A DNA stretch of 30,702 bases, from NCBI GenBank assembly GCA_902765975.1, contig CACXBO010000147.1, forward strand, positions 1 through 30,702. The letters are read 5' to 3'. The stretch comes from Oscillospiraceae bacterium. GTDB taxonomy: Bacteria > Bacillota > Clostridia > Oscillospirales > Oscillospiraceae. A program made the translations under genes and the position numbers. The notes under the pieces are model-generated. The model was not told the origin of the DNA. It was given only the letters and a program-made list of their open reading frames with translations, and searched no databases. Shown here piece by piece: positions 2,358 to 19,546 of this stretch. Positions within the stretch are counted from its first letter, which is position 1. Each line of letters opens with the position of its first letter.

Positions 2358-2840
2358 ATGGAAAAATATCTCGAAGCAGGCAAAATAATCAATACCCACG
2401 GAATAAAGGGCGAGGTAAAGATAGAGCCATGGGCTGACTCGCCGGATTTTCTCTTGGGCTTCAATACGTTTTATATAGACGGCTCGCCCGTCCGCGTCAT
2501 CTCTCAGCGCGTACACCAGCGCTTCGTTATCGCAAAGCTCGGCGGCACAGACGATATGAACTCCGCCGAGAGGCTTAAAAACAAGATAGTGTATATTGAC
2601 CGCGACGACGCCCCGCTATCTGAGGGCGAATATTTCATCTCCGATCTCGTCGGTTTTTCCGCCTTTGACGAGGCCGGCGCCGAGCTCGGTAAAGTTACCG
2701 AGATACTCACTCGACCGGGCGGCGACGTTCTTGTTATAGACGGAAATCGAGAGATACTCGTTCCGCTCATCCCGGAATTCGTTGTCGGCAGGGATATGGA
2801 GGCTGAGAGGCTCACTATCCGGCTCATTGAGGGAATGTGA
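2358..2840 (+). CDS. rimM: 16S rRNA processing / ribosome maturation factor RimM
   Basis: YLEAGKIINTHGIKGEVKI N-terminus and PRC-barrel C-terminus (GEYFISDLVG...EILVPLIPEFV); synteny; ATG 2358 follows a GGTGA SD. Confidence 0.95.
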   Translation: MEKYLEAGKIINTHGIKGEVKIEPWADSPDFLLGFNTFYIDGSPVRVISQRVHQRFVIAKLGGTDDMNSAERLKNKIVYIDRDDAPLSEGEYFISDLVGFSAFDEAGAELGKVTEILTRPGGDVLVIDGNREILVPLIPEFVVGRDMEAERLTIRLIEGM

Positions 2841-2841
2841 T

Positions 2842-5567: not shown

Positions 5568-7406
5568 TTATTTTGTTTTCAAAGTGCGCATCGCGTTAAG
5601 CACGCAGATGACGAGAACTCCCACGTCGGCAAATACGGCCGCCCACATCGTCGCCCTGCCCAAAAGTCCGAGGATGAGGACGACAGCCTTGACCGCAAGG
5701 GCAAATATTATGTTTTCGCGCACTATCCTGTTAGTTCGGCGGGAAATGTCAATAGCCTTCGTGAGCTTGTTGAGATCGTCGTCCATCAGCACTATATCGG
5801 CGGCCTCGATAGCCGCGTCTGAGCCGAGCGCTCCCATTGCGATACCGAGATCGGCCCGGGCAAGTACAGGCGCGTCGTTTATCCCGTCGCCGGCAAACAC
5901 TACCTTGCCGTTCGGCGACTTGTTCTTCAGCTCCTCTTCAACGTGCTTCACCTTGTCCGCAGGCAGAAGCTCTGAGTGGACGGCGTCGAGGCCTAACTCT
6001 CCCGCGACGCTCTCTCCCACCTCCGCCCGGTCTCCGGTCAGCATGACCGTGCGTATGCTTCTTTTTTTCAGCTCGGATATCACTGAAGCGGACTCCGGCT
6101 TAATCTCGTCGGAGATAACGATATGGCCGAGATAATCGCCGTTTTCCGCGACGTGTACCACCGTTCCCGCAGCCTTGACACTGCCGCAGTCTATCCCCGC
6201 CTCCTTCATCATAAGCGCGTTTCCCGCTCTGATCACTGCACCGTCCACGACGGCTGAAACGCCTCTGCCCGTATGCTCTTCGACGTTTTCGACTCTCGAC
6301 CTGTCGGCAGCCTTGCCGAACGCTCTCCTTATGCTCTCCGCTATCGGGTGCGTGCTGTCGCACTCCGCGTGAGCTGCGCGGTCGATGAGACGTTCACCGT
6401 CCGCTCCCGCAGAGGCTATCCTCGTTACAGCGAAGCTTCCCTTCGTAAGCGTTCCGGTTTTATCGAACAGAACGGTCTCCGTCTTGCCGAGATCCTCAAG
6501 ATAATTAGAGCCCTTTACAAGTATGCCCTGGCGGCTTGCTCCGCCTATGCCCCCGAAAAAGCTCAGCGGCACGCTCAGTACGAGGGCGCAGGGGCAGCTT
6601 ATAACGAGGAAGGTCAAGGCCTGATGTATCCATTTATACCACTGCCCGTCGAAAAGCGGCGGAACGAGCGCAAGAAGAAGGGCGGCACCTACTACTGCTG
6701 GAGTGTACCACCTTGCAAAGCGGGTTATAAAGCTCTCGCTTTTCGCCTTGTTGGACGCAGAGTTCTCAACGAGGTCGAGTATTTTGGAGACTGTGGAATC
6801 TCCGAACTCCTTCGTCGTGCGGACGCGCAGAGTCGCAGTCATATTGACAGACCCGGAAACTACGGCTTCACCCGGACGTATTCCGCGCGGCAGGCTTTCG
6901 CCCGTAAGCGCGGCTGTGTCAAGCGAGCTCTCGCCCTCTATTACCTCTCCGTCTATAGGCACGCGCTCACCGGGTCTTATAACGATAACGCTTCCCACCG
7001 CCACCTCCTCGGGATCGGTCTCCTCTATTCCGTTCTCCGTTTCAAGGTTTGCAGTGTCCGGCCTGATATCCATCAGCGCGGCTATGCTCCTGCGGCTCTT
7101 GCCGACAGCAAGGTGCTCGAAAAGCTCTCCGACCTGGAAGAAGAGCATTACGAATACCGCCTCCGGATACTCGCCTATCGCAAAAGCTCCAACTGTGGCA
7201 AGCGCCATCAGAAAGCTCTCGTCAAATACCTGCCCCCTTGCGATACCGCGACATGCCTTGAGCAGCACGTCATAGCCGACTATCAGATACGGCAGAAGAT
7301 AGAGGCTGAGCCTTATCCACCCCTCAGCCCGGATAAAATGCAGTATCACAAGCAGGACTGCGGAAACTGTTATCCTGATAAGCGACAGCTTTTCTACTTT
7401 TTTCAT
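5568..7406 (-). CDS. cadA: Heavy-metal translocating P1B-type ATPase (Zn/Cd/Pb, CadA/ZntA-like) lacking an N-terminal metal-binding domain
   Basis: TGES, SCPC, DKTGTLT, xHP (STHPIA), GDGINDAP and ADVGV motifs. Confidence 0.93.
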   Translation of the reverse strand: MKKVEKLSLIRITVSAVLLVILHFIRAEGWIRLSLYLLPYLIVGYDVLLKACRGIARGQVFDESFLMALATVGAFAIGEYPEAVFVMLFFQVGELFEHLAVGKSRRSIAALMDIRPDTANLETENGIEETDPEEVAVGSVIVIRPGERVPIDGEVIEGESSLDTAALTGESLPRGIRPGEAVVSGSVNMTATLRVRTTKEFGDSTVSKILDLVENSASNKAKSESFITRFARWYTPAVVGAALLLALVPPLFDGQWYKWIHQALTFLVISCPCALVLSVPLSFFGGIGGASRQGILVKGSNYLEDLGKTETVLFDKTGTLTKGSFAVTRIASAGADGERLIDRAAHAECDSTHPIAESIRRAFGKAADRSRVENVEEHTGRGVSAVVDGAVIRAGNALMMKEAGIDCGSVKAAGTVVHVAENGDYLGHIVISDEIKPESASVISELKKRSIRTVMLTGDRAEVGESVAGELGLDAVHSELLPADKVKHVEEELKNKSPNGKVVFAGDGINDAPVLARADLGIAMGALGSDAAIEAADIVLMDDDLNKLTKAIDISRRTNRIVRENIIFALAVKAVVLILGLLGRATMWAAVFADVGVLVICVLNAMRTLKTK

Positions 7407-7621
7407 TTTGCTTCTATCTCAAAATCCGAGTCGGCTTTTTTACCCACTCGCTCTATCTCGCGCACTATCGCGCTCTGATCCTCGCAGTCCGTCTCGAGGG
7501 TGAGCTTCTGAGTCATAAAGCTTATAGTGCATTTTTTTACTCCGTCAAGCTTATTGACCGCGTTTTCGACCTTAGCGGCACAGTTCGCGCAGTCGATCTC
7601 TATCTTATAGGTTTTTCTCAT
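7403..7621 (-). CDS. Stand-alone HMA-domain metal-binding protein
   Basis: 72 aa with DCANCA (CxxC) in a ferredoxin-like HMA pattern; 4-nt overlap with the cadA start. Confidence 0.88.
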   Translation of the reverse strand: MRKTYKIEIDCANCAAKVENAVNKLDGVKKCTISFMTQKLTLETDCEDQSAIVREIERVGKKADSDFEIEAK

Positions 7622-7635
7622 CTGACAGTCCCCCT

Positions 7636-8001
7636 TTATATCTCCTCAAGATGTTCCTTCGCCATACCGATTATCGTTGCAACGTGGTCGTCGGCAAGCG
7701 AATAAAGCACGGTCTTTCCGACCCTTCTCGCCTTAATAAGTCTCTCGCCCTTTATTATGCGAAGTTGGTGACTGACCGCGCTCTGACTTGCGCCCAGTAC
7801 CTCTGCAATGTCGCATACGCACATCTCAGACTCAAACAGAACGTACAGTATCTTTATCCGGGTCGAGTCCCCAAAGACCTTGAAAAGCTCAGCAAGATCA
7901 AACAGCTCATCCTCATCCGGCATCTTCTCCCTCACCTTTGAAACGACGTCGTTGTGCAGGACCCGCACGTCGCAGAGCTCCGTGCCGTTTTTATCTATCA
8001 T
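7636..8001 (-). CDS. ArsR/SmtB-family metal-sensing repressor (ZiaR/CadC-like)
   Basis: LFKVFGDSTRIKIL, EMCVCDIA (alpha3 site), SQSAVSHQLR HTH and C-terminal D-x-H-x10-H-x2-E (alpha5 site); GGAGG SD supports ATG 8001. Confidence 0.93.
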   Translation of the reverse strand: MIDKNGTELCDVRVLHNDVVSKVREKMPDEDELFDLAELFKVFGDSTRIKILYVLFESEMCVCDIAEVLGASQSAVSHQLRIIKGERLIKARRVGKTVLYSLADDHVATIIGMAKEHLEEI

Positions 8002-8014
8002 TCTCTCGCCTCCA

Positions 8015-8040
8015 AACATATGAATATCTGTTCATATGTT
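8015..8040. promoter_or_regulatory. ArsR/SmtB operator
   Basis: Perfect 10-6-10 inverted repeat AACATATGAA-TATCTG-TTCATATGTT between the -10 box and the SD; the minus-strand core TGAACAGATATTCA resembles SmtB-type boxes. Confidence 0.85.
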
Positions 8041-8041
8041 C

Positions 8042-8069
8042 ATTATATCACTCATTTCCGAATTGTCAA
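8042..8069 (-). promoter_or_regulatory. Sigma-A promoter of the cad operon
   Basis: Minus strand TTGACA (8069-8064)-16 nt-TATAAT (8047-8042) with a TG extension; consensus hexamers. Confidence 0.85.
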
Positions 8070-8070
8070 C

Positions 8071-8101
8071 AAAAAAAAAGCGGAAGGTTCTGCCCTTCCG
8101 C
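8071..8101 (-). terminator. Intrinsic terminator of the LUD-domain gene
   Basis: 8-bp stem GCGGAAGG/CCTTCCGC followed by T9 on the minus strand. Confidence 0.85.
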
Positions 8102-8107
8102 AAATTA

Positions 8108-8737
8108 TCAAAAGCCCAAATTATCGTTGACAAGGATCACGCTGATCCTGTCCTTATGCCTTGAGAACCGGGTTATGAGGAACTGGCAGCAGATGGTATC
8201 CGGAGACTTGCAGTTCATACAGGAGCCGGTCCTTGCGCATGGAGTTGAAAGACCGAAGCGCTGGGCGTTTATCGGGGCGGCGACGTTTCGAGCCCGCTTC
8301 ATCGCGCTGTCAATATCCGGGCATACCTTGTTCATACCCACGATAAACAGAACATGCTTTGGTCCCTGAGCTATAGCGGAGACCCTGTTTGCGTTGCCGT
8401 CGATATTGACGATGACGCCGTCCTCGGTTATTGCGTTTGCGCTTGCAATAAAATAGTCCGCGTCGTAAGCGGCGAGCATCGCAGCTCTCTTGTCCTCGTA
8501 AGCGTCTCTGTCGATGAAGCTGTAATCCGCGCTTTTTAGTGCAGCGGTAAGCCCTATCTCGTGCGCGCTCATGCAGCCGCCCATAGTTACGGAGCTGCCG
8601 GTCGGGATAAGCTCGAGGGCGAGCTTCAGCGCCTCGGCTCTGTTTGCGGCGTAATAACCCTTCATATTCCTCGATTCAAGCCCCTTGATAACCTTCCCAG
8701 CAAGAAGCCCGTTGCGTTTCATTATAATATCGTTCAT
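8108..8737 (-). CDS. LUD-domain (LutC/YkgG-like) 'lactate utilization' family protein
   Basis: ASANAITEDGVIVNIDGNANRVSAIAQGP and IVGMNKV fit the clostridial LUD family; Cys-rich C-terminus PCARTGSCMNCKSPDTICC; GGAGGG SD. Confidence 0.75.
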   Translation of the reverse strand: MNDIIMKRNGLLAGKVIKGLESRNMKGYYAANRAEALKLALELIPTGSSVTMGGCMSAHEIGLTAALKSADYSFIDRDAYEDKRAAMLAAYDADYFIASANAITEDGVIVNIDGNANRVSAIAQGPKHVLFIVGMNKVCPDIDSAMKRARNVAAPINAQRFGLSTPCARTGSCMNCKSPDTICCQFLITRFSRHKDRISVILVNDNLGF

Positions 8738-8760
8738 TTTCTTTTCCCTCCTTTAAGCAG

Positions 8761-8789
8761 ATTATACCAAATTGATAAGCTCAAGGCAA
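8761..8789 (-). promoter_or_regulatory. Sigma-A promoter of the LUD gene
   Basis: Minus strand TTGCCT-17 nt-TATAAT with a TG extension. Confidence 0.65.
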
Positions 8790-8790
8790 C

Positions 8791-8819
8791 AAAAAACGCG
8801 GAGCAAAAGCTGCTCCGCG
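8791..8819 (-). terminator. Intrinsic terminator of the lipoprotein gene
   Basis: 9-bp stem CGCGGAGCA/TGCTCCGCG followed by T6 on the minus strand. Confidence 0.8.
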
Positions 8820-8836
8820 CCTGTGTTAGGTGCATA

Positions 8837-9220
8837 TTACTTCTCGTAGACGTACTCGCAGGTCCAGATGTCCTCCGGATCGCCGTTGAAGATATCAAGA
8901 ACGCCGTCCTTAAGGGTGCCGGTATACTTAATCTCCATGCCGAGGAAGGTCTCGGTCATAGCGAAGTCCTCGCCGTCGAGAGTCCAGGTAACGTTGAGGT
9001 CGAGGCCGTCGCGGGTGCTTACGCCTTTGCCGCCTGCCTTGAGCTCGAGGGAGAACTCATCGCTTGTGTTCTTCTCTTCATCGCCGACGTACTTGGTGTA
9101 CTTGCCTTCCCACTTGCCGACAGCAGGGCTGGAAGCTCCGCCTCCGCCGCAGGCGGCGAGAAGACCTGCAAATAGCGCGATGCAAAGTACTATGCCTATG
9201 TATCTTGCCATCTTTTTCAT
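8837..9220 (-). CDS. Small lipoprotein of unknown function (predicted all-beta, lipocalin-like)
   Basis: MKK start, hydrophobic core, LAAC lipobox, Gly/Ser linker, then VGKWEG and alternating beta-strand patterns; AGGAGG SD. Confidence 0.8.
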   Translation of the reverse strand: MKKMARYIGIVLCIALFAGLLAACGGGGASSPAVGKWEGKYTKYVGDEEKNTSDEFSLELKAGGKGVSTRDGLDLNVTWTLDGEDFAMTETFLGMEIKYTGTLKDGVLDIFNGDPEDIWTCEYVYEK

Positions 9221-9266
9221 TTTTCAGTTCCTCCTGATTATTATACTGAGCCAATGCTCAAACACA

Positions 9267-9295
9267 AGTTTACCATTCTGTGCAGTATTTGTCAA
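9267..9295 (-). promoter_or_regulatory. Putative sigma-A promoter of the lipoprotein gene
   Basis: Minus strand TTGACA (9295-9290)-17 nt-TAAACT (9272-9267) with a TG extension. Confidence 0.6.
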
Positions 9296-9298
9296 GCA

Positions 9299-10114
9299 TC
9301 AGGCATAGCTGTGTACTCCGGGCAGGAGCGTGTTTACGCCAACATAGGTAAACATAACGCAGATGAAGCCGATCACGGCAAAGATGGCGGCTGATCTGCC
9401 GCGCCAGCCGCGGCGTATTCTGAGGTGGAGATATACCGCGTAAACTATCCACGTTACGAGAGACCACGTCTCCTTGGGGTCCCACGACCAGTAGCTGCCC
9501 CAAGCACGCTCAGCCCAGATAGCTCCGGTTATCATCGTGAACGTCAAAAACAGCATACCGAGAGCTGCGCTTCTGTAGCTTATCAGATCGAGCTTTTCCT
9601 TATTTGGTATATGCTGATCGAGAAAGCCCCTGTCCTTCAGCTTATCGCGCAAAAGGAAGATTATACCGAGCACAAAGGAAACGCCGAAGGAGCCGTAGGC
9701 GATTATCGCCGTTGAGACGTGTACTCCGAGCCAGCCTGACTTAAGCGCGGGCATCAGCGAGTGTATCGTTTTCGACTGCATCGCCGCATAGCCTATTATC
9801 AGAAAGGTTACGGGAGCAGCAAACGCGCCGAGAACGGGAAATTTGAATTTGACAATGAAGAGAAGGCTCACGAGCGACAAGCCCCACGCGAATGCGGAGG
9901 CGAACTCATACTGATTCGTAAGCGGAAGTCTTCCCGCGGCTATTCCACGTACGACTATCGCCGCAGTATGTATGAAAAGCCCGGCTATATGAACCGTTAC
10001 GGCGACCTTGGAAACAGCGTCCTTCTTCGCAGCTATGAATACGAAATAGATGAGCATCGCCGCAAGGTACATTATCAGTGTGATCGTAAACAGAACGTTC
10101 TCCAAATGAATCAT
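9299..10114 (-). CDS. ccsA: System II cytochrome c biogenesis protein CcsA/ResC
   Basis: GRLPLTNQYE, conserved His in VHVSTA, WWD domain WAERAWGSYWSWDPKETW and YLHLR; multiple TM segments. Confidence 0.95.
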   Translation of the reverse strand: MIHLENVLFTITLIMYLAAMLIYFVFIAAKKDAVSKVAVTVHIAGLFIHTAAIVVRGIAAGRLPLTNQYEFASAFAWGLSLVSLLFIVKFKFPVLGAFAAPVTFLIIGYAAMQSKTIHSLMPALKSGWLGVHVSTAIIAYGSFGVSFVLGIIFLLRDKLKDRGFLDQHIPNKEKLDLISYRSAALGMLFLTFTMITGAIWAERAWGSYWSWDPKETWSLVTWIVYAVYLHLRIRRGWRGRSAAIFAVIGFICVMFTYVGVNTLLPGVHSYA

Positions 10115-11379
10115 GCCTCTTTCCTCCCTGCCGCATTCAAAAATCGCTCCTTAAACAGTTTTCCGCCCTTGCGGCATGAGGCGGATACCGTCCAGCCCGC
10201 ATCTTCCCTGACGCCCCATAGCTTCTGCGGCTGGAGATAGAAGGCGAGGAATAGTCCAATAAGCGTTACAACGCCGCCGGCAAGGGCTATAGGAGCAAAA
10301 AAGTCACGCTTTATCTGTATGAGAGTGTAGCTCTGCGGCTCTGAGAAGGCGACAGTATACTCGTCTATCGTCACCACTTCTCCGTCTTTGAGCACGTTCA
10401 TGCCGAGAAGCTCACCGTTGTAGTATACCGAATAAAGGTAGCCCGGATTATTAAGCTGACCTGACGCCGTGCTTGGACCGACGCCGGAGACCATAACGAG
10501 GTCCGGATAGAATGCGTTGAAGTACACTATGAGCTCTGGCTTATCCTTTATTGGCAGAAGCTCTCCGGCGCAGACTACCGCAGAGTCGAGAGGCAAGCCG
10601 TCCTTCAATACGCTCACCTTTGCCGCCCAGCCTGTCGAGTTCTGATAAAAGCGCATTCCGAAAAGATCGGCAGGGTTATTAACGCTCACTGACGCGGTTT
10701 CGCTCGCCCCGCTTTTCAGGTCGGTCACGGTTATCTTCGACTCATACTGCTCCACCGTGTCGTCCTCACGCAATCCGATACTGAAATCGTCTATTGTAAG
10801 CGCAAGTCCTGTGTCTCCGACAGCCCTGGTCTGACCGGGGACACCATAGGCTGTGAACTCCCCGTGCGTCATCTGACCGAGGGAAAATCCGACGATCAGA
10901 AGCAGTATACCGATATGGCAGACGAATGCGCCCCATATTCCCGCCCGGTTCTTAGCGGCGAAAAGGGTCTCTCTGCCCTCTCCGTCCTCTCCCCGTACTA
11001 TTGTCCGCATCCCGAGCTTGACGAACAGCTTTTCCGGGTCGTCTATTCCCTCTGCCTGGGCATCGGGCATTTCCGACGGAAGCTTATGGGCCTTCGTCCT
11101 TTTTATAAGCCCCGGAAGCTGCTGCAGAGTGCAGAGCATTAGATTTAGGCACAAAAAACCGTTTATTGCGATAAACCACGCGCTATGGAATGCGTCGTCA
11201 AGCCTTAATGCTATTATCAGCGCAGCCGTTCGCTCAGAATACCTCTGTGCATACCACTCGTAGCTCTGACCCTGGGTAACGAGGCTTGCAATCGAGCAGG
11301 CTATCGCCAGGACGACCAGAAGAACGATGGCAAATCTCATTGAAATGAGAAATCTCCATATTTTATGAACTGTTTTCAT
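10111..11379 (-). CDS. resB: System II cytochrome c biogenesis protein CcsB/ResB
   Basis: FLISMRFAIVLLVVLAIACSIAS, DAFHSAWF, conserved His in FVCHIGILL, large extracytoplasmic domain with SVNNP and FYQ, C-terminal TM; ATGA overlap with ccsA. Start is ATG 11379 or TTG 11394. Confidence 0.9.
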   Translation of the reverse strand: MKTVHKIWRFLISMRFAIVLLVVLAIACSIASLVTQGQSYEWYAQRYSERTAALIIALRLDDAFHSAWFIAINGFLCLNLMLCTLQQLPGLIKRTKAHKLPSEMPDAQAEGIDDPEKLFVKLGMRTIVRGEDGEGRETLFAAKNRAGIWGAFVCHIGILLLIVGFSLGQMTHGEFTAYGVPGQTRAVGDTGLALTIDDFSIGLREDDTVEQYESKITVTDLKSGASETASVSVNNPADLFGMRFYQNSTGWAAKVSVLKDGLPLDSAVVCAGELLPIKDKPELIVYFNAFYPDLVMVSGVGPSTASGQLNNPGYLYSVYYNGELLGMNVLKDGEVVTIDEYTVAFSEPQSYTLIQIKRDFFAPIALAGGVVTLIGLFLAFYLQPQKLWGVREDAGWTVSASCRKGGKLFKERFLNAAGRKEA

Positions 11380-11397
11380 ACCATGCCTCTTCAAACG

Positions 11398-11423
11398 GGG
11401 CGCGACCTTCGGCCGCGCCCTTG
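11398..11423 (-). other. GC-rich intergenic stem-loop between nrfA and resB
   Basis: Minus strand GGGCGCGGCC-GAA-GGTCGCGCCC is a 10-bp stem with one G-U pair; only a weak T-tract (CGTTTG) follows. Confidence 0.6.
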
Positions 11424-11440
11424 CGTGTTTATTCTTCAGC

Positions 11441-12745
11441 TCATTTATTCAAAAGCGCCATGGCCTCATCGATTTTCGCCTCGGCCGTGTCAAGGCAGCG
11501 GAAGGCAAGCTCTGAGTTATGCGCTCCCTCCGCGTTCTCAACATAGCAGAAGTCGAAGAACCACTGGGCCTCGCGGTGCAGCTTTCTCACAGCGTCGAGC
11601 TCCTCCTCGGTCATTTTTCCCGCCTCGACGGCTGCCGTCAGAGCGTCCTTGAGATCGGAGAGCCTGTTTCCGACCTCCGTCTCTCTCGCAGTAACTCTGT
11701 CCTGAAGCCTGTGAACATACGTAACCATATCTGTATCCTTATGGCACTGAGCGCAGCTCTGAAGCAGGGTCTCGTTCTCAAGCGGGCTTACGAGAAGGTG
11801 GCTGTGATATACCGTGCCGTTCTCCGACATCTCCATAGGCATATGGCAGTCGGCGCAGTTGAGAAGCGAGGCGTGCTTTCCGGTCGAGAAGGTCTCAAAT
11901 TCCGGGTGCTGAGCCTTCAGCATCGGAGTTCCCGTTCCCGGCTGTATCCAGTCGTAAAAACCGACGCCACCGTCCTTGTTGCCGATAGAATCGTAGTATT
12001 CGAGAATTGCCTCGGGAGTCATCGTCTCGAGCCCGGAATACGGCATCATCGTCTCGGCGTTCTCTACAGTGAAGTAGTATTCTATATGGCACTGGGCGCA
12101 TGAGACCGTCGCCGGATCAAAGGAGCTTACGTTCTCTCCGAGAGCCTTGTTGACGTAGGAGTGAGTTACAACGAGTCTGCCTCTGTCTCCCGCCTCGTTT
12201 CCGTGGCAGGTGTAGCAGCTCACGTTCTCCTCCATAAGCGCCATAGCCTCGTCGAAGGGTATCTTATACGCGCTTACGCCCTGATCGTTGACGAGCTTTG
12301 CGAAGTTCGGAGTCTTGCAGGTAAGGCAGTTGGCGTTAGGATGCGGACGGGCGGTTGCAGCGACGTCCTCCAATGTGTACTCGTGACCCCTCGCGCTGCC
12401 GTAGTCCTTGGCGAAACCGTAGCCCTCGTAAATATTTACAAGATACGGATCCGCTTCGAGGTACGAGGTAACGTAGCTGTTTTTAGAGTTGTCGCCCATC
12501 GTGGCGACTATCTCCGGGTAGAGCGCAGCCCAGTCGGAGGCGTTAACCGTTCCGTCGCCGCTCGTTGCGGTCGGTGCGGCGACGCTCAGATAAGTTATGT
12601 CGTCGCGGGTAAGCGGTCCTATCCTGTCGCGGTTTTCAAGGTGATACATAAGGTCGCCGCCTATGAAGCCGCCTAAAAGAATGACGGCAGCGATTACGAG
12701 AGCGGCGGCTAAAGCGATCTTGAGACCGATATGTCTTTTTTCCAT
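11441..12745 (-). CDS. nrfA: Pentaheme ammonia-forming cytochrome c nitrite reductase NrfA (c552)
   Basis: Lys-ligated CLTCK motif (12314-12328) followed by four CxxCH motifs (CYTCH, CAQCH, CADCH, CAQCH); RGHxY...D...R segment, CHIEYYF, KAQHPEFE and ENAEGAHN; N-terminal hydrophobic helix. Confidence 0.95.
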   Translation of the reverse strand: MEKRHIGLKIALAAALVIAAVILLGGFIGGDLMYHLENRDRIGPLTRDDITYLSVAAPTATSGDGTVNASDWAALYPEIVATMGDNSKNSYVTSYLEADPYLVNIYEGYGFAKDYGSARGHEYTLEDVAATARPHPNANCLTCKTPNFAKLVNDQGVSAYKIPFDEAMALMEENVSCYTCHGNEAGDRGRLVVTHSYVNKALGENVSSFDPATVSCAQCHIEYYFTVENAETMMPYSGLETMTPEAILEYYDSIGNKDGGVGFYDWIQPGTGTPMLKAQHPEFETFSTGKHASLLNCADCHMPMEMSENGTVYHSHLLVSPLENETLLQSCAQCHKDTDMVTYVHRLQDRVTARETEVGNRLSDLKDALTAAVEAGKMTEEELDAVRKLHREAQWFFDFCYVENAEGAHNSELAFRCLDTAEAKIDEAMALLNK

Positions 12746-12754
12746 CTCTCAACC

Positions 12755-13558
12755 TCACCTTTCTGCATTCCTCGGCGGAGTGATCACCTTTGCCGGGCAT
12801 TTCTCGGCGCATTTTCCGCACTGTACGCATTTTTCATAGTCTATATGCGCAAGATTGTTTTCAACTGCGACAGCTCCCGATTCACATTGCTTAACGCATA
12901 AGGCGCAGCCAATGCAGCCGGCAGAACAGACCTTTCTGACGGTCGGACCCTTGTCCCTGTTAGAGCACTGAACGGAAACTCTCTTCGATTCAGGCACGAG
13001 CTCGATGAGACCGCGAGGACACGCCTTTGCGCAGAGCCCGCAGCCTATGCACTTTCTTCTGTCGACGGAGGCGACGCCGCCTTTGACCTTGATCGCACCG
13101 GCGGGACATACCGACGAACATGTTCCGAAGCCAAGGCAGCCGTAGTCGCAGTCTGTGACGCTTATGCCGCTGAGTACGGCGCTGCGGCAGTCTCTTATGC
13201 CGATATAGTTGCCCTGGTTATGCGTCACCTCGCAGCTTCCCTTGCAGCGGACGAAGGCTACCCTTCGCTCCGAGGCTTCGGCGGTCACGCCCATGACCTC
13301 GCCAATCTTCGCGGCGACCGGTCCGCCGCCTACCGGGCAGCCGTTCACCGGGGCTTCGCCATTCACTATGGCGGCAGCCATTGCGTCGCAGCCGGCAAAG
13401 CCGCACGCGCCGCAGTTATTGCCCGGCAGGCATTCTCTCACCGCCGCCTCTCGAGCATCGGTCTCGACCTTGAATTTATTATCCGTGAAAACGAGACCTG
13501 CTCCAACGAGAAGTCCTATCAGCGTTATTACGAGAGTTGTAATTAAGATTATTGACAT
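12755..13558 (-). CDS. rnfB: Rnf complex subunit B (polyferredoxin)
   Basis: N-terminal TM, LPGNNCGACGFAGC...CPVG FeS motif and several CxxCxxCxxxCP-type clusters; GAGGAGG SD supports ATG 13558. Confidence 0.95.
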   Translation of the reverse strand: MSIILITTLVITLIGLLVGAGLVFTDNKFKVETDAREAAVRECLPGNNCGACGFAGCDAMAAAIVNGEAPVNGCPVGGGPVAAKIGEVMGVTAEASERRVAFVRCKGSCEVTHNQGNYIGIRDCRSAVLSGISVTDCDYGCLGFGTCSSVCPAGAIKVKGGVASVDRRKCIGCGLCAKACPRGLIELVPESKRVSVQCSNRDKGPTVRKVCSAGCIGCALCVKQCESGAVAVENNLAHIDYEKCVQCGKCAEKCPAKVITPPRNAER

Positions 13559-13571
13559 ATCCGCCCTCCTC

Positions 13572-14150
13572 TCAGAAGCTGAGCCCGGCAAAGCCCATAA
13601 AGGCTATGCTCATAAGGGCGGCGGCGATAAGGACGATGGGCGCTCCGCGCAGAGGCGCGGGTATGTCCTCCTCCTTGATACGGGAACGGATGCTCGCAAG
13701 CAGCACGATAGCGATCGTATAGCCGAGAGCAGTCCCGAAACCGGAGAGTACGCATTCAATGAAGTTGTATCCGTTCTGCACGTTCGTCAGCGCAACGCCG
13801 AGAACGGCGCAGTTCGTGGTGATAAGCGGCAGATAGATACCGAGCGCCTTGTAGATCGCGGGCGACTTCTTTTTCAGGAACATCTCGACGATCTGAACAA
13901 GGGCGGCGATAACGAGGATGAAGATTATCGTCTTCATATAGTCGAGGCCGAGTGGCTTGAGCACGTTATCATAGAGTATGCTCGCTACCGCGGAGGCTAT
14001 GGTAATTACGAATATGACCGCAGCTCCGAGGCTTGCAGACGCCTTCATCTGCTTCGATACGCCGAGGAAGGAGCAGATTCCGAGGAACTGATTAAGCACC
14101 ACATTGTGGATAAGGGCGCTGCCGACTATGATGAGTATGAGGCTCGTCAT
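13572..14150 (-). CDS. rnfA: Rnf complex subunit A
   Basis: NVVLNQFLGICSFLGVS, LGIYLPLITTNCAVLG, PIVLIAAALMSIAFMGF. Confidence 0.95.
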   Translation of the reverse strand: MTSLILIIVGSALIHNVVLNQFLGICSFLGVSKQMKASASLGAAVIFVITIASAVASILYDNVLKPLGLDYMKTIIFILVIAALVQIVEMFLKKKSPAIYKALGIYLPLITTNCAVLGVALTNVQNGYNFIECVLSGFGTALGYTIAIVLLASIRSRIKEEDIPAPLRGAPIVLIAAALMSIAFMGFAGLSF

Positions 14151-14830
14151 TTCTTATCCACCTCCTCGGTTTCGCCGCAGGGCGCGGAGCAGGTTGCGCA
14201 TTCGCCGCCGCAGCCCTCCTCTACCAGCTTGCGCTGCCGTGTCTTAATGCCTATTGCGTTCATTATCGCGATGAACAGAGCGATAACGAGAAATGCTCCC
14301 GGAGGCTGAACAAAAATACCGATGGGCTCAACGCCCTCGGGCAGCACGTTGATTCCGAAAACGCTGCCGTTGCCGAGGAGCTCTCTGACGGCTCCCGCGA
14401 GAGTCAGAGCGACTGTGAAGCCGAGACCCATTCCGAGTCCGTCCATGACGGCGAGACCCGGAGTGTTCTTGTTGGCGTATGCCTCGGCTCTGCCGAGGAT
14501 GATGCAGTTTACGACGATGAGCGGGATGTAGATGCCCAGCGCCTCGTAAAGGGAGGGTATATACGCCTGTATCAGCAGCTCAGTCACGGTAACGAGCGAC
14601 GCCACGATAACGATGTAGGACGGAAGCCTAACCTGGTCTGGTATCAGCTTTCTGAGCGCGGAAATAACGAAGTTTGACAGGATGAGAACGGCAGTAGTTG
14701 AGAGACCCATACCTATTCCGTTCATCGCCCTCGTAGAAACGGCGAGGGTCGGGCACATTCCGAGCATCAGGACGAGAGTGGGATTTTCCTTTATTACGCC
14801 GTTGTAGAGGCGTTCAAAGTATTTGTTCAT
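14147..14830 (-). CDS. rnfE: Rnf complex subunit E
   Basis: ENPTLVLMLGMCPTLAV, LGIYIPLIVVNCIILGRAE, RELLGNG and PPGAF; Cys-rich tail. Confidence 0.95.
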   Translation of the reverse strand: MNKYFERLYNGVIKENPTLVLMLGMCPTLAVSTRAMNGIGMGLSTTAVLILSNFVISALRKLIPDQVRLPSYIVIVASLVTVTELLIQAYIPSLYEALGIYIPLIVVNCIILGRAEAYANKNTPGLAVMDGLGMGLGFTVALTLAGAVRELLGNGSVFGINVLPEGVEPIGIFVQPPGAFLVIALFIAIMNAIGIKTRQRKLVEEGCGGECATCSAPCGETEEVDKK

Positions 14831-14831
14831 C

Positions 14832-16388
14832 TCAGTTTCCTCCCTTCAGCACGTTAGCGTAGAAGTCGACGCCGGCATTTACTGCGTTTACGACCGCCTT
14901 GGAGGTTACGGTTGCGCCCGTGATCGCGTCTATCTCTCCGTCAGACGCGGCGCCGGATTTAACGAGGGTGAATTTTGAAACTTCCTTACCCTCGAACTGG
15001 GACATAAACTCCGGCTCGCCGCAGCGCATTCCCATACCCGGCGTCTCGTTCAGCTCGGTAAAGGCAATGCCGTTAACAACTCCGTCCGCGCTGATTCCCA
15101 CAGAGAGGGTGATGTTCCCGTCGTTGCCCTCGGCTGTGGTGACGCTTATAACGTAACCGACGACAGATCCGTCGGCTCCCCTTCCGACAACGGCGCCGTT
15201 TATATAGACCTTGCCGAAGCCTGAGCCGTAAACTCCGCCGTCAAGCTCCTCGATGAAGCTCTTCGCAGCCTCGCTCGGCTCGAAGCTCACCGCGTCCGGG
15301 CATACCGCCTTGTACGATTCGGTATTCGCCGCGAGCTTCTGCTCCTCTATCGTGTCCTTAGTAAGCGTGAAGACTCCGCTGAGCGCGGCTCCCGCCAAAA
15401 GGGTTATGATTCCGATAGCAACAACTGGCTTGGGAATTCGGAATTTTCTTCTCTCCCTGTTCTGCGCGCCCTTTCTGTAGGCAAAGGGCTTGGGAATGAT
15501 ATACGTGTCTATGAGCGGGACGAGAAGGTTTCCGATTATTATCGAATAGCTGAAGGAATCGGCAGACGAGCCGAAAATGCGGAACAGAGCGCCGAGGACT
15601 CCGATCGTAAGTCCGTAGATAAGCTGTCCGAGCCGGCTCACAGGGCTGGTAACGTAATCCGTCGCCATAAAGAAGGCGCCCATTATTACTCCGCCGCCGC
15701 AGAGATTCGCTGCAAGGAACCGCGGGTCAAAGCCCTGCCCGCCGAAGAGCCCGATAAGCAGCGTGAAGCCGCCGATAACGGAGAAACATATCTCACCGTG
15801 GATGATGTCCATAGCCCAGAGGACGAGACCGCCTGCGAGAAGCGCGATAGCCGAGCTTCCGATGACTCCGTTGGCCGTTCCGAGAAACATCTCTGTGATA
15901 TTGACTGCTCTTCCCGCCATAAGGTCGCCGATAGGCGTTGCCGCCGTCACTCCGTCGACCGTGAACATAGTCATCGTCTTTCCGAAGGAGATAAGCAGGA
16001 AGCATCTGGCGGCAAGCGCCGGGTTTACAAAGTTTTTGCCGAGTCCGCCAAAGCAGCATTTGACTATGAAAATGGCGAATACGCTTCCTATCACGGGTAT
16101 GTAGAGCGGAACGCTCGGAGACAGGGTTAGCGCAAGCATAAGTCCCGTAACTACCGCGCTTCCGTCGAGCCAGGTGTCGGGCTTATGCGCAATCTTATCG
16201 AAAATGAACTCGGTCAGAACTGCCGTTCCTACGGAGGCGAGGATCACCCAGAAAGCTCTCAGTCCGTATGCTAAAACGCCGATGACCGCAGTCGGAAGTA
16301 GGGCGAGAGCGACGACGCCCATTATAAATCTCGTCGTCCACCTGTCTCTTGCGTGAGGCGCGGGAGAAATATTAAGCGTTGTGTTCAT
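14832..16388 (-). CDS. rnfD: Fused Rnf subunit D (N-terminal ~310 aa) and subunit G (C-terminal ~200 aa)
   Basis: RnfD motifs SPAPH, DGSAVVTGL, FGGLGKNFVNPALAAR, DGVTAATP (FMN-Thr), FFMATDYVTSP; then a TM helix and an FMN_bind domain ETPGMG...IDAITGATVTSKAV (RnfG FMN-Thr) in one frame. Confidence 0.93.
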   Translation of the reverse strand: MNTTLNISPAPHARDRWTTRFIMGVVALALLPTAVIGVLAYGLRAFWVILASVGTAVLTEFIFDKIAHKPDTWLDGSAVVTGLMLALTLSPSVPLYIPVIGSVFAIFIVKCCFGGLGKNFVNPALAARCFLLISFGKTMTMFTVDGVTAATPIGDLMAGRAVNITEMFLGTANGVIGSSAIALLAGGLVLWAMDIIHGEICFSVIGGFTLLIGLFGGQGFDPRFLAANLCGGGVIMGAFFMATDYVTSPVSRLGQLIYGLTIGVLGALFRIFGSSADSFSYSIIIGNLLVPLIDTYIIPKPFAYRKGAQNRERRKFRIPKPVVAIGIITLLAGAALSGVFTLTKDTIEEQKLAANTESYKAVCPDAVSFEPSEAAKSFIEELDGGVYGSGFGKVYINGAVVGRGADGSVVGYVISVTTAEGNDGNITLSVGISADGVVNGIAFTELNETPGMGMRCGEPEFMSQFEGKEVSKFTLVKSGAASDGEIDAITGATVTSKAVVNAVNAGVDFYANVLKGGN

Positions 16389-17740
16389 TTCTTACCTCCC
16401 GCCGCAAGGCGCTTGAGCGCCATGATCTCAGCCTTCTTCTCCTTAAAGGTCTGCGTAAGCGGACGCTTTGCAGGGCAGACGTAGGTGCATGAGCCGCAGG
16501 CTATGCACTCAAGGCCGTATAGCTTTTTCTCGTATCTCTCAAGATCGCCTATATAGACGGCGTCCGCCATAAGCTGAGGCAGAAGTCCCTGCGGGCAGAC
16601 GGTGGTGCAGCGACCGCAGTGCAGGCATGCCGTCTCCTGCTTCTCCGCCTTTTCGCAGGCGTCCTCGGCAAATACCGTCACGCCGTTCGTCGTCTTGACC
16701 GCGGGCACGTCGAGAGAAGCGAAAGCAAAGCCCATCATCGGACCGCCGGCGAGGACTTTCTTCAGAGTTTTCCCGTCATTAACGCCGCCGCAGGCCTCCA
16801 AAAGCTCAGAAATGCTCGTTCCGTTCCTAACAATGAGATTTGCGGGCTCCTTCACCGCGTCGCCGCTTACGGTAAGAACGCATCTGAACAGCGGCTCATT
16901 AAACGCCACTGCGCGCTGAACGGCGTAGATAGTGCCCACGTTGTCGACAATGCAGCCGACGTCGGCCGGAAGAGCGGTTATCGGGAAGTCGACCCCCGCG
17001 ATAACGCTGATCAGGCTTCGTTCGCCGCCCTGAGGATATTTCGTTTTGAGAGGGAGCACTCTTATTCTCTCCTCGCCCTCAGACGCCTTTCTCATCGCCT
17101 CAATAGCCTCTGGCTTGTTCTTCTCAACGGCTATAACTCCCTCTGCGTTCGGGAAAAGGCTGAGTATTATCCTCAGACCCTCGACTATCTCCTCAGGTCT
17201 CTCGCGCATCAGCCTGTCGTTTCCGGTGAGGCAGGGCTCGCACTCCGCTCCGTTTGCGATAACGTACTTGATCTTGTCCGGTTCCTTCGGCGCGAGCTTA
17301 ACATGAGTGGGAAATCCCGCCCCTCCGAGTCCGACTATCCCCGCCGCCTTTACCCTTGCGATTATCTCATCGCGGGAAAAACCGGAGTAGTCCTCCCTCT
17401 TGCCAAAGCTGCCCGTCTCGGTGAACTGTCCGTCGTTTTCAATTACGATGCACTCCTGCATAGTGCCGGCGATCGTTCTTCGCTTTTCTATCGCCTTTAC
17501 CTTGCCGGAGCAGGATGATATGACGTTCGCGGAAATAAAACCGTCAGCCTCCGCGATAAGCTGACCTGTCAGTACCGGGTCGCCCTTTTTGACTATCGGC
17601 TTCGCCGGCTTGCCGATGTGCTGGCTGAGCGGCAGGACTATATCCCCGACCGCTTCGTAAACTCGCAGCGGTCTTTTGCTCTGAGGATCCTTCAGGCCCT
17701 TCGGATGCACGCCGCCGCGGAAACTGTCCTTCACTGGCAT
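16385..17740 (-). CDS. rnfC: Rnf complex subunit C (NADH/FMN-binding, 2x[4Fe-4S])
   Basis: FRGGVHP, PLSQHIGKPA, AGIVGLGGAGFPT, NGAECEP, KYPQGGE, LAGGPMMG, CLHCGRCTTVCP, CIACGSCTYVCP; GGGAGGGG SD supports ATG 17740 rather than the ORF-track start 17971. Confidence 0.96.
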   Translation of the reverse strand: MPVKDSFRGGVHPKGLKDPQSKRPLRVYEAVGDIVLPLSQHIGKPAKPIVKKGDPVLTGQLIAEADGFISANVISSCSGKVKAIEKRRTIAGTMQECIVIENDGQFTETGSFGKREDYSGFSRDEIIARVKAAGIVGLGGAGFPTHVKLAPKEPDKIKYVIANGAECEPCLTGNDRLMRERPEEIVEGLRIILSLFPNAEGVIAVEKNKPEAIEAMRKASEGEERIRVLPLKTKYPQGGERSLISVIAGVDFPITALPADVGCIVDNVGTIYAVQRAVAFNEPLFRCVLTVSGDAVKEPANLIVRNGTSISELLEACGGVNDGKTLKKVLAGGPMMGFAFASLDVPAVKTTNGVTVFAEDACEKAEKQETACLHCGRCTTVCPQGLLPQLMADAVYIGDLERYEKKLYGLECIACGSCTYVCPAKRPLTQTFKEKKAEIMALKRLAAGGKK

Positions 17741-17798
17741 TTCCCCCTCCCTGGTTATGTAAAGACCGTATATTATTAAGCATACCTTCACATCTCGT

Positions 17799-17827
17799 AT
17801 TTTATCAGAAACCCGGCTCCATGTAAA
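17799..17827 (-). promoter_or_regulatory. Sigma-A promoter of the rnf-nrf-ccs unit
   Basis: Minus strand TTTACA (17827-17822)-17 nt-TAAAAT (17804-17799) with a TG extension. Confidence 0.65.
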
Positions 17828-17850: not shown

Positions 17851-17887
17851 CAAAAAACCGCTCCCGATAATGATATTCGGGAGCGGT
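17851..17887 (-). terminator. Intrinsic terminator of rny
   Basis: 11-bp stem ACCGCTCCCGA/TCGGGAGCGGT followed by a T-tract on the minus strand; separates rny from rnfC. Confidence 0.85.
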
Positions 17888-17903: not shown

Positions 17904-19451
17904 TTATTTTGCGTATTCAACCGCCTTTGTCTCGCGGAAGAGATTGACCTTGATCTGACCTGGATACTCAAGCTCCGCCTCGATCTTGTTTGCGATCTGA
18001 CGGGCGAGTATGACCATCTCGTCCTCGCTGACCTCCTCGGGCTTGACCATTATGCGGACCTCTCTGCCCGCCTGTATAGCGTAGCAGCTGTCAACTCCGG
18101 CAAAGCTCTTGGTGACCTCTTCGAGCTTCTCAAGGCGCTTGATATAATTCTCGATATTCTCGCGTCTTGCTCCGGGACGGGCCGCGGAAATCGTGTCCGC
18201 AGCCTGGACTATAACTGCGATTATGCTGTGAGGCTCAACGTCGCCGTGGTGCGACTCAATAGCATGTACGACCTCTTCGGATTCCTTGTATCTCCTCGCA
18301 AGCTCCACTCCGAGCTGGACGTGGCTGCCTTCCATTTCATGATCCACCGCCTTGCCGAGATCGTGGAGAAGTCCTGCGCGCTTTGCAAGCTGAACGTCTA
18401 CCCCGAGCTCGCTCGCAATCAGGCCGGCGATGAACGCGACCTCCTTCGAGTGGTTCAAAACGTTCTGACCGTAGCTCGTGCGGTACTTCATTCTGCCGAT
18501 AAGCTTTACAATCTCCGGATGGAGTCCGCGGACTCCTGTCTCGAATACGGCTCTCTCACCTTCCGCCTTTATAGTCGCGTCGACCTCGCTCTGGGCCTTG
18601 CGGACCATATCCTCGATCCTCGCCGGATGAATACGCCCGTCGATTATGAGCTTTTCAAGGGCGAGCCTTGCGACCTCGCGCCTTACCGGGTCGAAGCAGG
18701 AGACCGTTATCGCCTCCGGCGTGTCGTCGATTATCAGATCGACGCCGGTCATCTGCTCGATTGAGCGGATGTTCCTGCCCTCGCGGCCGATTATGCGGCC
18801 CTTCATCTCATCGTTCGGGAGGGCGACGACGGATACCGTCGCCTCCGCAACGAGGTCTGCCGAGCAGCGCTGGATCGCAAGAGTTACGATCTCCTTCGCC
18901 TTCTCATCGGCTTCGTCTCTGAGGCGCGCCTCTATCTCCTTGATCTTGACGGCCGCCTCGTGAGTGCACTCGGCCTCCACATTGGCGATCAGGTATGCCT
19001 TCGCCTCCTCTACCGTATAGCCCGAGATGCGCTCGAGCACCTCCATCTGGCTCTTTTTGAGAAGACTTACCTCCTCCTTCTGCGTTTCGATGTCCTGAAG
19101 CTTCTTCGCTATCTGGTCGTTCTTCTTTTCAAGGGCGTCGGTCTTCTTGTCGAGGTTCTCTTCCTTCTGCTGAAGGCGGCGCTCCTGCTTGGAGAGCTCG
19201 GCTCTCCTTTCCTTTACCTCTCGCTCGTATTCGGAGCGATTCTTGTGTATTTCCTCTTTTGCCTCCAACAACGCCTCGCGCTTTTTCGATTCAGCGGATT
19301 TCAGAGCGTCGTTCATTATTCTTTTGGCTTCCTCCTCGGCTGAACCGATCTCACGCTCGGCGACCTTCTTGCGGTAACCGATTCCGAGGAAAAACGTCAG
19401 GGCGGCAAGAACAGCGCCGATCCCAAGTCCAATAAACATCCATGGCCACAT
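17904..19451 (-). CDS. rny: Ribonuclease Y
   Basis: N-terminal TM, long coiled coil, KH domain ([15 protein letters not shown]), HD domain (LLHDLGK), C-terminal [10 protein letters not shown]; GGAGGTG SD favours ATG 19451 over GTG 19463. Confidence 0.97.
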
Positions 19452-19546
19452 CTGAGTATACACACCTCCATTTCCGTTGTATTAAAGTATCAAAAAGGGA
19501 CTACCGGTGGTGCAGAGCATAAATCCCCATAAATACCATATTAGTA

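Follow-up and report, generated by a model that had tools for sequence, protein, structure and literature searches.

Our results indicate that eight genes from an uncultured member of the rumen Clostridia quite likely constitute a single self-contained and horizontally mobile module for the quinone-independent reduction of nitrite to ammonium, in which the nitrite reductase NrfA probably receives its electrons straight from an Rnf complex, without quinones. In the known cases, nitrite ammonification by NrfA relies on NrfH or NrfBCD to oxidise quinol and, to our knowledge, the bacterial Rnf complexes known so far shuttle electrons between ferredoxin and NAD only. The block lies in the window (i.e., the whole stretch of 30,702 nt of DNA that was analysed), which belongs to a host genome of 1.38 Mb with 92% completeness, and is carried by hundreds of uncultured rumen species. 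All carrier genomes are MAGs, and the absences described below hold for incomplete assemblies, the host assembly at 92% among them.

Pfam assigned to each gene, from rny through ccsA, the name given in an earlier note made from the sequence of the window, and the order proposed there after the rny terminator (rnfC, rnfDG, rnfE, rnfA, rnfB, nrfA, resB, ccsA) was borne out by Pfam and by the coordinates, together with the spacings between genes. The block and the features preceding it are all on the minus strand. The preceding gene is rny (17904-19463), whose intrinsic terminator, a strong hairpin with a U-run (17851..17887; fold of -25.4 kcal/mol, z -4.7), marks the upstream limit of the unit. 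The one promoter candidate proposed earlier was recovered at 17799..17827, ~50 nt 5' of rnfC; it is sigma-70-like (TTTACA-17-TAAAAT, with TG) by consensus match only, with 10/12 matches. The first gene, rnfC (16385..17740, 451 aa), has the SD GGAGGGGGAA 5' of its ATG and encodes an RnfC_N domain, a Nuo51-type FMN/NADH domain, SLBB and two [4Fe-4S] clusters. It overlaps by 4 nt an rnfD-rnfG fusion in a single frame (14832..16388, 518 aa; PF03116 and PF04205), followed after a 1-nt gap by rnfE (14147..14830, 227 aa), whose product has a Cys-rich cytoplasmic C-terminal tail, and then, with a 4-nt overlap, by rnfA (13572..14150, 192 aa). A 13-nt gap leads to rnfB (12755..13558, ~267 aa from ATG), encoding an N-terminal TM helix, an FeS domain and ferredoxin-type clusters; its open reading frame extends to a TTG at 13591, and the ATG start was taken for these coordinates. 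Nine nt further lies nrfA (11441..12745, 434 aa), encoding an N-terminal TM anchor, a ~40-aa linker and a pentahaem nitrite reductase; its SD AAAGGTGAGG overlaps the rnfB stop codon, as had been stated, and scanning of the rnfB/nrfA junction revealed neither a promoter-like site nor structure. Between the structural and maturation genes, a 10-bp GC hairpin with a weak U tract is found 3' of nrfA (11398..11420; -21.6 kcal/mol, z -2.5), a possible attenuator or mRNA stabiliser, and the nrfA-resB spacer is structured in 60 of 77 loci. The last two genes, overlapping by 4 nt, are resB/ccsB (10111..11394), of system II cytochrome c maturation, and ccsA (9299..10114), for haem export and ligation, with the motif WGSYWSWD. 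A lipoprotein ORF 3' of ccsA (8837-9220) was considered as a hidden partner and discarded, given that it has no haem motif and that its adjacency to the block is not conserved.

All six Rnf subunit types are encoded together, with D and G as one polypeptide according to Pfam, and rnfD and rnfG are fused in all carriers. The RnfDG alignment shows that the flavinylation motifs VTAATP and ITGATVTS are kept, and a gene for the flavin transferase ApbE was found on C195 of the host genome and throughout the five carriers searched, most of which also have pyruvate:ferredoxin oxidoreductase (PFOR) and ATP synthase. A second, housekeeping rnf was looked for and none was found in the host genome, where the block holds the only one; likewise, 30 of the 32 other carriers checked have a single rnfD. 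The Cys-rich tail of RnfE is kept in 71 of 74 carriers. No feature of RnfG or RnfD qualified as an NrfA docking site by being specific to carriers, as the D-G fusion, an RnfG insert and the RnfE tail are shared with sister rnf operons lacking NrfA.

The NrfA protein looks catalytically complete from its sequence. It contains one CXXCK and four CXXCH haem motifs (CLTCK, CYTCH, CAQCH, CADCH and CAQCH), invariant across 67 homologues, and alignment to 1GU6 located the active-site Arg/Tyr/His and Ca-site residues (RGH, CHIEYYF, KAQHPE). An AlphaFold monomer of moderate confidence (pLDDT 74) confirmed the fold and the TM helix, with a Foldseek TM of 0.66 against 1GU6, and the linker after the anchor is conserved. 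NrfA is the sole ORF of the host with at least two CXXCH motifs, and its sole multihaem protein. Given that ResB/CcsA is single-copy in the host genome, this one system II set would have to serve both the CXXCH and the CXXCK sites of NrfA.

The linkage between rnfB and nrfA was surveyed in the best 80 species genomes, which yielded 78 informative loci. In all 78, rnfB lies directly 5' of nrfA, at a median distance of 14 nt, the two genes overlapping in several loci; in addition, the operon proteins of an independent metagenome contig (L170) are 98-100% identical to those of the window. The adjacency is thus not peculiar to one assembly, and the arrangement is far above chance. Furthermore, the loss of a single stop codon has generated RnfB-NrfA fusions in several lineages (L003/L004, L068, L087, L172, L200 and L216), with consistent topology; these fusions could be nearly neutral, because the nrfA SD and ATG are retained. 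A second type of fusion is found in sister operons (L145, L151, L153, L190, L194 and others), where the slot after rnfB is occupied by an NrfA fused to one to several covalent-FMN domains of RnfG type; 8 of the 10 closest NrfA relatives tested carry 1-3 such FMN_bind domains, which points to a flavin-to-haem route on the outside of the membrane. Other extracytoplasmic reductases have also joined the same Rnf lineage: a Tat-exported FMN_bind+FAD reductase is placed between rnfB and nrfA in L061, and a similar one lies immediately 5' of rnfC in L138. Taken together, the RnfB-NrfA and FMN_bind-NrfA fusions suggest a possible physical association of Rnf with NrfA.

The classical donors of NrfA are missing from the genomes searched. 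The absence of a quinol dehydrogenase, reported in the earlier note, holds for the entire 1.38 Mb of the host genome, where the NrfH/NapC and NrfD families and UbiA-family matches above cut-off are all absent. Among carriers, the NrfH/NapC family (PF03264) was found in 0/5 genomes and NrfD (PF03916) in 0/10. Menaquinone synthesis requires a UbiA-type prenyltransferase, and none scored above cut-off in five carriers, a result that bears on synthesis and remains compatible with the uptake of external quinone; as a positive control, the same search matched 14/14 reference genomes. Hence an NrfH fed by menaquinone made elsewhere in the genome, which the earlier note had named as a competing source of activity, was found in none of these five carriers. 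The five genomes searched also lack haem synthesis genes and molybdoenzymes, including nitrate reductase, so that they must depend on nitrite produced by other members of the rumen community.

Electrons might still reach NrfA from another donor, either a flavinylated membrane protein (NapH-like or otherwise) or reduced shuttles outside the cell, with the rnf link reflecting shared regulation or selfish-operon packaging of two co-expressed systems. NapH-like Fer4_5 proteins indeed occur in 5 of 10 carriers, in one of them adjoining ApbE, and the lack of a carrier-specific docking feature in RnfG is in line with this explanation. Moreover, operon membership alone is no proof of electron transfer by analogy with DhcA, encoded in the rnf operon of Desulfovibrio alaskensis, which has no Rnf-linked phenotype (PMC4215793). 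However, NapH-like proteins cannot be the universal donor, since they are missing in the host genome and four other carriers, and the host has no multihaem protein besides NrfA; both types of fusion and the 14-nt median spacing are also hard to explain in the absence of physical coupling. We therefore consider another donor improbable, and direct transfer from Rnf the preferred reading.

As to its origin, the whole eight-gene block is, by its pattern of sequence identity, a distinct Rnf lineage that has been horizontally transferred and is exchanged among rumen species. In 465 pairs, the concatenated identity of Rnf and NrfA stays at ~71% (sd 2) at any host distance, while that of the host marker Ffh goes from 64% down to 44%. 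The block did not arise by addition of nrfA to the resident Rnf: congeners carry a different Rnf with split RnfD/G, only ~40% identical, and one genus shows two separate acquisitions of the block. The flanks differ among loci (1053 flanking ORFs in 900 clusters); they are ordinary and non-recurrent, and no integrase or transposase was found at the borders as a mobile-element candidate. Since every carrier is a MAG, with several short contigs among those bearing the block, a cross-phylum distribution could in principle arise from mis-binned contigs, the block being inherited vertically within one Clostridia lineage. This is very improbable in view of several observations: in G004 the Ffh marker and the operon share one 168-kb contig; the rny of the window, next to the operon, shares 95% identity with close kin and 79-84% with the remaining genus; in other carriers, flanking genes on the same contig are 30-55% identical to the host genome, against ~70% for the operon; and the block is missing from congeners at 100% completeness, which carry another Rnf instead.

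The quinone-independent chain from Rnf to NrfA proposed in the earlier note is thus supported by the genomic tests, namely the conserved adjacency, the absence of nrfH and UbiA, and the absence of a second rnf, within what such tests can suggest. The genomes themselves document the gene content, its conservation, the fusions, the lack of the classical donors and the horizontal spread, whereas the route of the electrons, their exit at RnfG and any pumping of ions are what we infer. In the proposed mechanism, electrons from reduced ferredoxin would enter at RnfB and pass through RnfA/E of this specialised Rnf, with its fused RnfD and RnfG, and NADH may be an additional source via RnfC and RnfD. 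Electrons would then arrive at the FMN bound covalently to the RnfG domain, on the outer side of the membrane, and be passed to the haems of NrfA. The N-terminal membrane helix of NrfA would keep it beside Rnf, where it would reduce external nitrite supplied by other rumen microbes. ResB and CcsA would solely load haem onto NrfA, and this haem would have to be imported.

Whether such a chain conserves energy admits two readings. Rnf may feed NrfA mainly for the detoxification of nitrite, NO or hydroxylamine and as a fermentative electron dump, with no extra ions pumped on the nitrite branch. The dependence of the carriers searched on nitrite made by others, without a nitrate reductase, and their inability to make haem are compatible with this role, and an exit at RnfG would bypass part of the usual path, as deduced from the published Rnf/Nqr route (PMC8238504). 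Conversely, the block is the only Rnf in 30 of the 32 other carriers checked, its spread over hundreds of species suggests a strong general benefit, and the half-path from ferredoxin to RnfG runs across the membrane and may yet be electrogenic; we regard a mainly detoxifying role as rather unlikely. A bolder proposal, which we hold tentatively and doubt slightly more than we credit, is that Rnf and NrfA are assembled into a single stable supercomplex, an ion-translocating, energy-conserving and quinone-free ferredoxin/NADH:nitrite oxidoreductase. It would represent a complete one-complex respiratory chain that passes, within one operon, from one bacterial order of the rumen to another and apparently even across phyla, and a major unrecognised sink of ruminal nitrite.

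A direct link from Rnf to NrfA, if true, would give quinone-free fermenters a new mode of respiration or electron disposal and would provide a clear bacterial example of Rnf serving a terminal reductase. A mobile block across hundreds of uncultured rumen species is relevant to ruminal nitrite under methane-lowering nitrate feeding, to nitrite toxicity in ruminants, and to the balance of hydrogen and reductant. Furthermore, the eight genes make a compact and portable unit, and the question of transfer from Rnf to NrfA is therefore directly testable.

No description of an rnf-nrfA operon was found in the literature searched (subscription journals lay outside its coverage), so the earlier remark that no bacterial description was known stands for the operon itself; an Rnf with an operon-encoded cytochrome and a second extracytosolic exit each have bacterial precedents (PMC4215793, PMC8238504). 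The catalytic subunit is the same as in NrfHA of Wolinella and Desulfovibrio and NrfABCD of E. coli, with five haems including CXXCK, Arg/Tyr/His and the Ca site; in contrast to these systems, the quinol-oxidising NrfH or NrfB/C/D and the menaquinone prenyltransferase were not found in the carriers searched, and NrfA has its own membrane anchor. A TM-anchored NrfA without NrfH is also found, beside NapGH, in the quinone-free Gram-positive Natranaerofaba carboxydovora (PMC8359318), where it belongs to a nap locus, with a donor that is not known, and Rnf is encoded elsewhere. In Methanosarcina acetivorans (mmcA-rnfCDGEAB), a multihaem c-type cytochrome is encoded within the rnf operon, as here, and MmcA is thought to draw Rnf electrons out at the outer face (10.1101/2023.04.20.537704; PMC12174285); however, MmcA is not an enzyme but serves as a haem wire that leads to methanophenazine or to acceptors outside the cell, and mmcA opens an archaeal operon, whereas here nrfA follows rnfB, encodes a terminal reductase and occurs in bacteria without membrane electron carriers. 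The dhcA-rnfCDGEABF operon of D. alaskensis is a bacterial rnf co-transcribed with a multihaem cytochrome; DhcA, with no Rnf-linked fitness effect, is likewise not an enzyme, and quinones and numerous further cytochromes are present in D. alaskensis (PMC4215793). Finally, Meheust et al. (2021) described multi-flavinylated or multihaem RnfG proteins, partly from Christensenellales, and proposed a second, branched path from RnfG to extracytosolic acceptors, making no link of NrfA or nitrite to Rnf (PMC8238504). In those systems RnfG itself is extended and the terminal enzyme was not identified, whereas here the flavin modules, if present, are fused to NrfA.

The eight genes of the operon lie on the minus strand of the window, where six-frame ORFs and Pfam upheld the gene calls of the earlier note and reproduced its overlaps and gaps. 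On this strand, rny (RNase Y, 17904-19463) is followed by rnfC (16385-17740), an rnfD-rnfG fusion read in a single frame (14832-16388; 518 aa, PF03116 and PF04205), rnfE (14147-14830), rnfA (13572-14150), rnfB (12755-13558), nrfA (11441-12745), resB (10111-11394) and ccsA (9299-10114). Folding gave a strong hairpin with a U-run as the rny terminator, and a promoter-like TTTACA-17-TAAAAT was located about 50 nt 5' of rnfC. The rnfB/nrfA spacer is 9 nt long, lacks structure and contains the Shine-Dalgarno sequence; 3' of nrfA there is a GC hairpin whose U tract is weak (11398-11420). The spacer between nrfA and resB, where one exists (60 of 77 loci), folds at <= -12 kcal/mol every time, judged by folding energy alone, with U-runs being rare; this fold could lower the level of the maturation genes or stabilize the upstream mRNA. 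Elsewhere in the window, Pfam revealed an in-frame fusion of TrmD with a GNAT acetyltransferase domain (2782-4125).

The adjacency of rnfB and nrfA, for which the earlier note had proposed a synteny survey, does recur. Scanning a single genome from each species yielded 328 stretches with a relative of the window NrfA, the best 80 of which were all from ruminant-gut MAGs. Among these best 80 of 328, the order rnfC, fused rnfDG, rnfE, rnfA, rnfB, nrfA, resB, ccsA was constant and on one strand where the contig was long enough, and rnfB was found 5' of nrfA in 78 of 78 informative loci; in two loci (L009 and L027), resB/ccsA were missing 3' of nrfA. The rnfB-nrfA gap has a median of 14 nt (IQR 4.5-22.5), several pairs overlap, and six loci carry insertions between both genes, namely toxin-antitoxin-like cassettes, secreted proteins, or a Tat/flavoreductase set (L061). 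The cassettes lie on the operon strand (L024:9068-9979, L025:8668-9204 and L038:9425-9989), with a ParE-type pair in L024 and L038, DUF4160 in L025, and DUF2442 in L024 and L025. Other variants include a tandem nrfA in two copies (L050:10001-12433), an nrfA split over two frames in the close relative G211 (L101:7120-8362), and the order resB-ccsA-nrfA (L221). The window operon itself was repeated in a metagenome contig (L170) at 98-100% protein identity.

Sampling of the window's GTDB family turned up NrfA in 2 of 200 genomes, and sampling of its order in none of 400; most family members have separate RnfD and RnfG, 36-46% identical to the window fusion. Within the genus, rny is 79-95% identical over complete matches in 38 genomes, and the window contig therefore belongs in the genus. 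NrfA is present in 5 of 37 other genus genomes, 3' of rny as in the window in two (88% identical) and at another location in three (70% identical); this one genus must thus have acquired it at least twice. For 31 carriers of the block (465 pairs), concatenated RnfDG, RnfE, RnfA, RnfB and NrfA were compared with the host marker protein Ffh: operon identity was about 71% (sd 2) in each host-distance bin, Ffh ranging from 44% to 64% (Spearman 0.12). The submitters' labels (Lachnospiraceae, Oscillospiraceae, Erysipelotrichales-like and Spirochaetales) are recovered by the Ffh tree but intermixed in the operon tree, which is star-like. Between lineages, the sequences bordering the block are unrelated, and no mobile-element genes were found in them; genes next to the operon on these contigs share 30-55% identity with the window genome, versus about 70% for the operon itself; in one carrier (G004), Ffh and the operon share a 168-kb contig. 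The block's rnfD is the only rnfD in 30 of 32 other carriers checked. Together, these results argue, at the sequence level, that the block's Rnf is not a resident Rnf that later gained nrfA, and that Rnf, NrfA and the maturation genes move and evolve together.

All carriers are MAGs, and absences apply to incomplete assemblies, that of the window comprising 1.38 Mb in 231 contigs (92% complete). In this genome all eight genes are single-copy, with one nrfA and one rnfD, leaving no sign of the second housekeeping rnf raised by the earlier note, and NrfA is the sole ORF with at least two CXXCH motifs. The note's statement that no quinol dehydrogenase is present agrees with the absence of NrfH/NapC from the window genome and four other carrier MAGs, and of NrfD from 10 of 10; likewise, the suggested check for menaquinone genes gave no UbiA-type prenyltransferase above cut-off in the same five MAGs, the search having hit all 14 reference genomes used as a control. 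NapH-like Fer4_5 proteins were detected in 5 of 10 carriers; the window genome has none. The flavin transferase ApbE was found in 5 of 5 carriers, and pyruvate:ferredoxin oxidoreductase and ATP synthase in most of the five. No molybdopterin enzyme was detected in these five MAGs, hence neither Nap nor Nar, and nitrite must be external. Porphobilinogen synthase was also missing from the five (G000-G004), so that haem must be imported; these MAGs encode a c-type cytochrome nonetheless, and appear to be haem auxotrophs still maturing a pentahaem enzyme.

The window NrfA displays an N-terminal transmembrane helix and the haem motifs CLTCK plus four CXXCH, and retains the RGH arginine, the CHIEYYF tyrosine and Ca ligands, and KAQHPE in the alignment to E. 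coli NrfA (1GU6); its AlphaFold model has a pLDDT of 74 and a TM of 0.66 versus 1GU6. Attachment of the CXXCK haem depends on a dedicated lyase in E. coli and Wolinella; here, the single ResB/CcsA pair (9299-11394) must serve both CXXCH and CXXCK sites. After the helix comes a conserved linker (about 40 aa) in which GPLT, DGT and DW hardly vary. Solved NrfA structures show nothing equivalent, the two FMN-bearing forms examined either lack the linker or have another segment in its place, and it may dock on RnfG.

Fusions bear on the partner of NrfA. A 705-aa RnfB-NrfA fusion is present in two independent assemblies, with others in L068, L087, L172, L200 and L216, and comparison of close relatives traces it to one stop-codon loss (TAA to AAA). 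The fusion is topologically sound because the RnfB C-terminus is cytoplasmic and, at the NrfA N-terminus, a positively charged stretch precedes the membrane helix, which suggests that the NrfA anchor adjoins RnfB. Further, when 1.84 billion cluster representatives were searched without a profile, the nearest NrfA relatives proved to be long proteins whose catalytic domain is 49-71% identical to that of the window; 8 of 10 tested fuse NrfA to 1-3 copies of FMN_bind, the domain that ApbE flavinylates in RnfG and NqrC and that the window NrfA lacks. In metagenome loci (L145, L147, L149-L151, L153, L160, L184, L185, L188, L190-L192 and L194) these genes fill the nrfA slot, 3' of rnfB and 5' of resB-ccsA; L151:9053-12121, for instance, encodes a membrane helix, two FMN_bind domains, three further TGAT-type motifs and NrfA. 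Judged from domain architecture, these proteins are independent evidence that a covalently attached flavin on the outer side of the membrane would supply electrons to this NrfA clade.

According to the published scheme for Rnf and Nqr (PMC8238504), electrons leave the cytoplasm, reach the FMN that RnfG carries on the extracytosolic side, and return. The simplest interpretation would have NrfA tap this FMN. Nitrite would then accept electrons from ferredoxin, through RnfB and RnfA/E, and perhaps also from NADH, through RnfC and RnfD; the gene arrangement is observed, and from it we infer the electron path, its exit point and any ion pumping.

At its C-terminus, the window RnfE bears a Cys-rich tail on the cytoplasmic side (14147-14245; GCGGECATCSAPCG), which is conserved across 71 of the 74 carriers. 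Sister fused-DG rnf operons that lack NrfA have this tail too, an unfused Rnf does not, and it may constitute an additional metal or Fe-S site. Since such NrfA-less operons exist (about 50-56% identity; G171, G175 and G135), both fusion and tail are older than the NrfA link. G135, a family member, encodes a flavoreductase (two FMN_bind domains plus FAD_binding_2) immediately 5' of its fused-DG rnf (L138:1727-6805) and has another, ordinary rnf at a separate site, and in L061, a MAG labelled Lachnospiraceae by its submitters, tatA-tatA-tatC and a Tat-signal FMN_bind plus FAD_binding_2 flavoreductase (690 aa) lie between rnfB and nrfA (6492-9961). Both cases suggest that this Rnf lineage repeatedly pairs with extracytoplasmic reductases.

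No description of an rnf-nrfA operon was found in the literature searched: a 2025 RNF/NQR review mentions neither nitrite nor fusions, and rumen surveys tally nrfA as a marker gene, leaving out its context. A branched RNF path via multi-flavinylated or multihaem RnfG was proposed by Meheust et al. (PMC8238504), with no link to NrfA. Among known systems, Desulfovibrio alaskensis co-transcribes dhcA with rnf, with no Rnf-linked phenotype (PMC4215793), and Natranaerofaba has an anchored NrfA that lacks NrfH and adjoins NapGH (PMC8359318).
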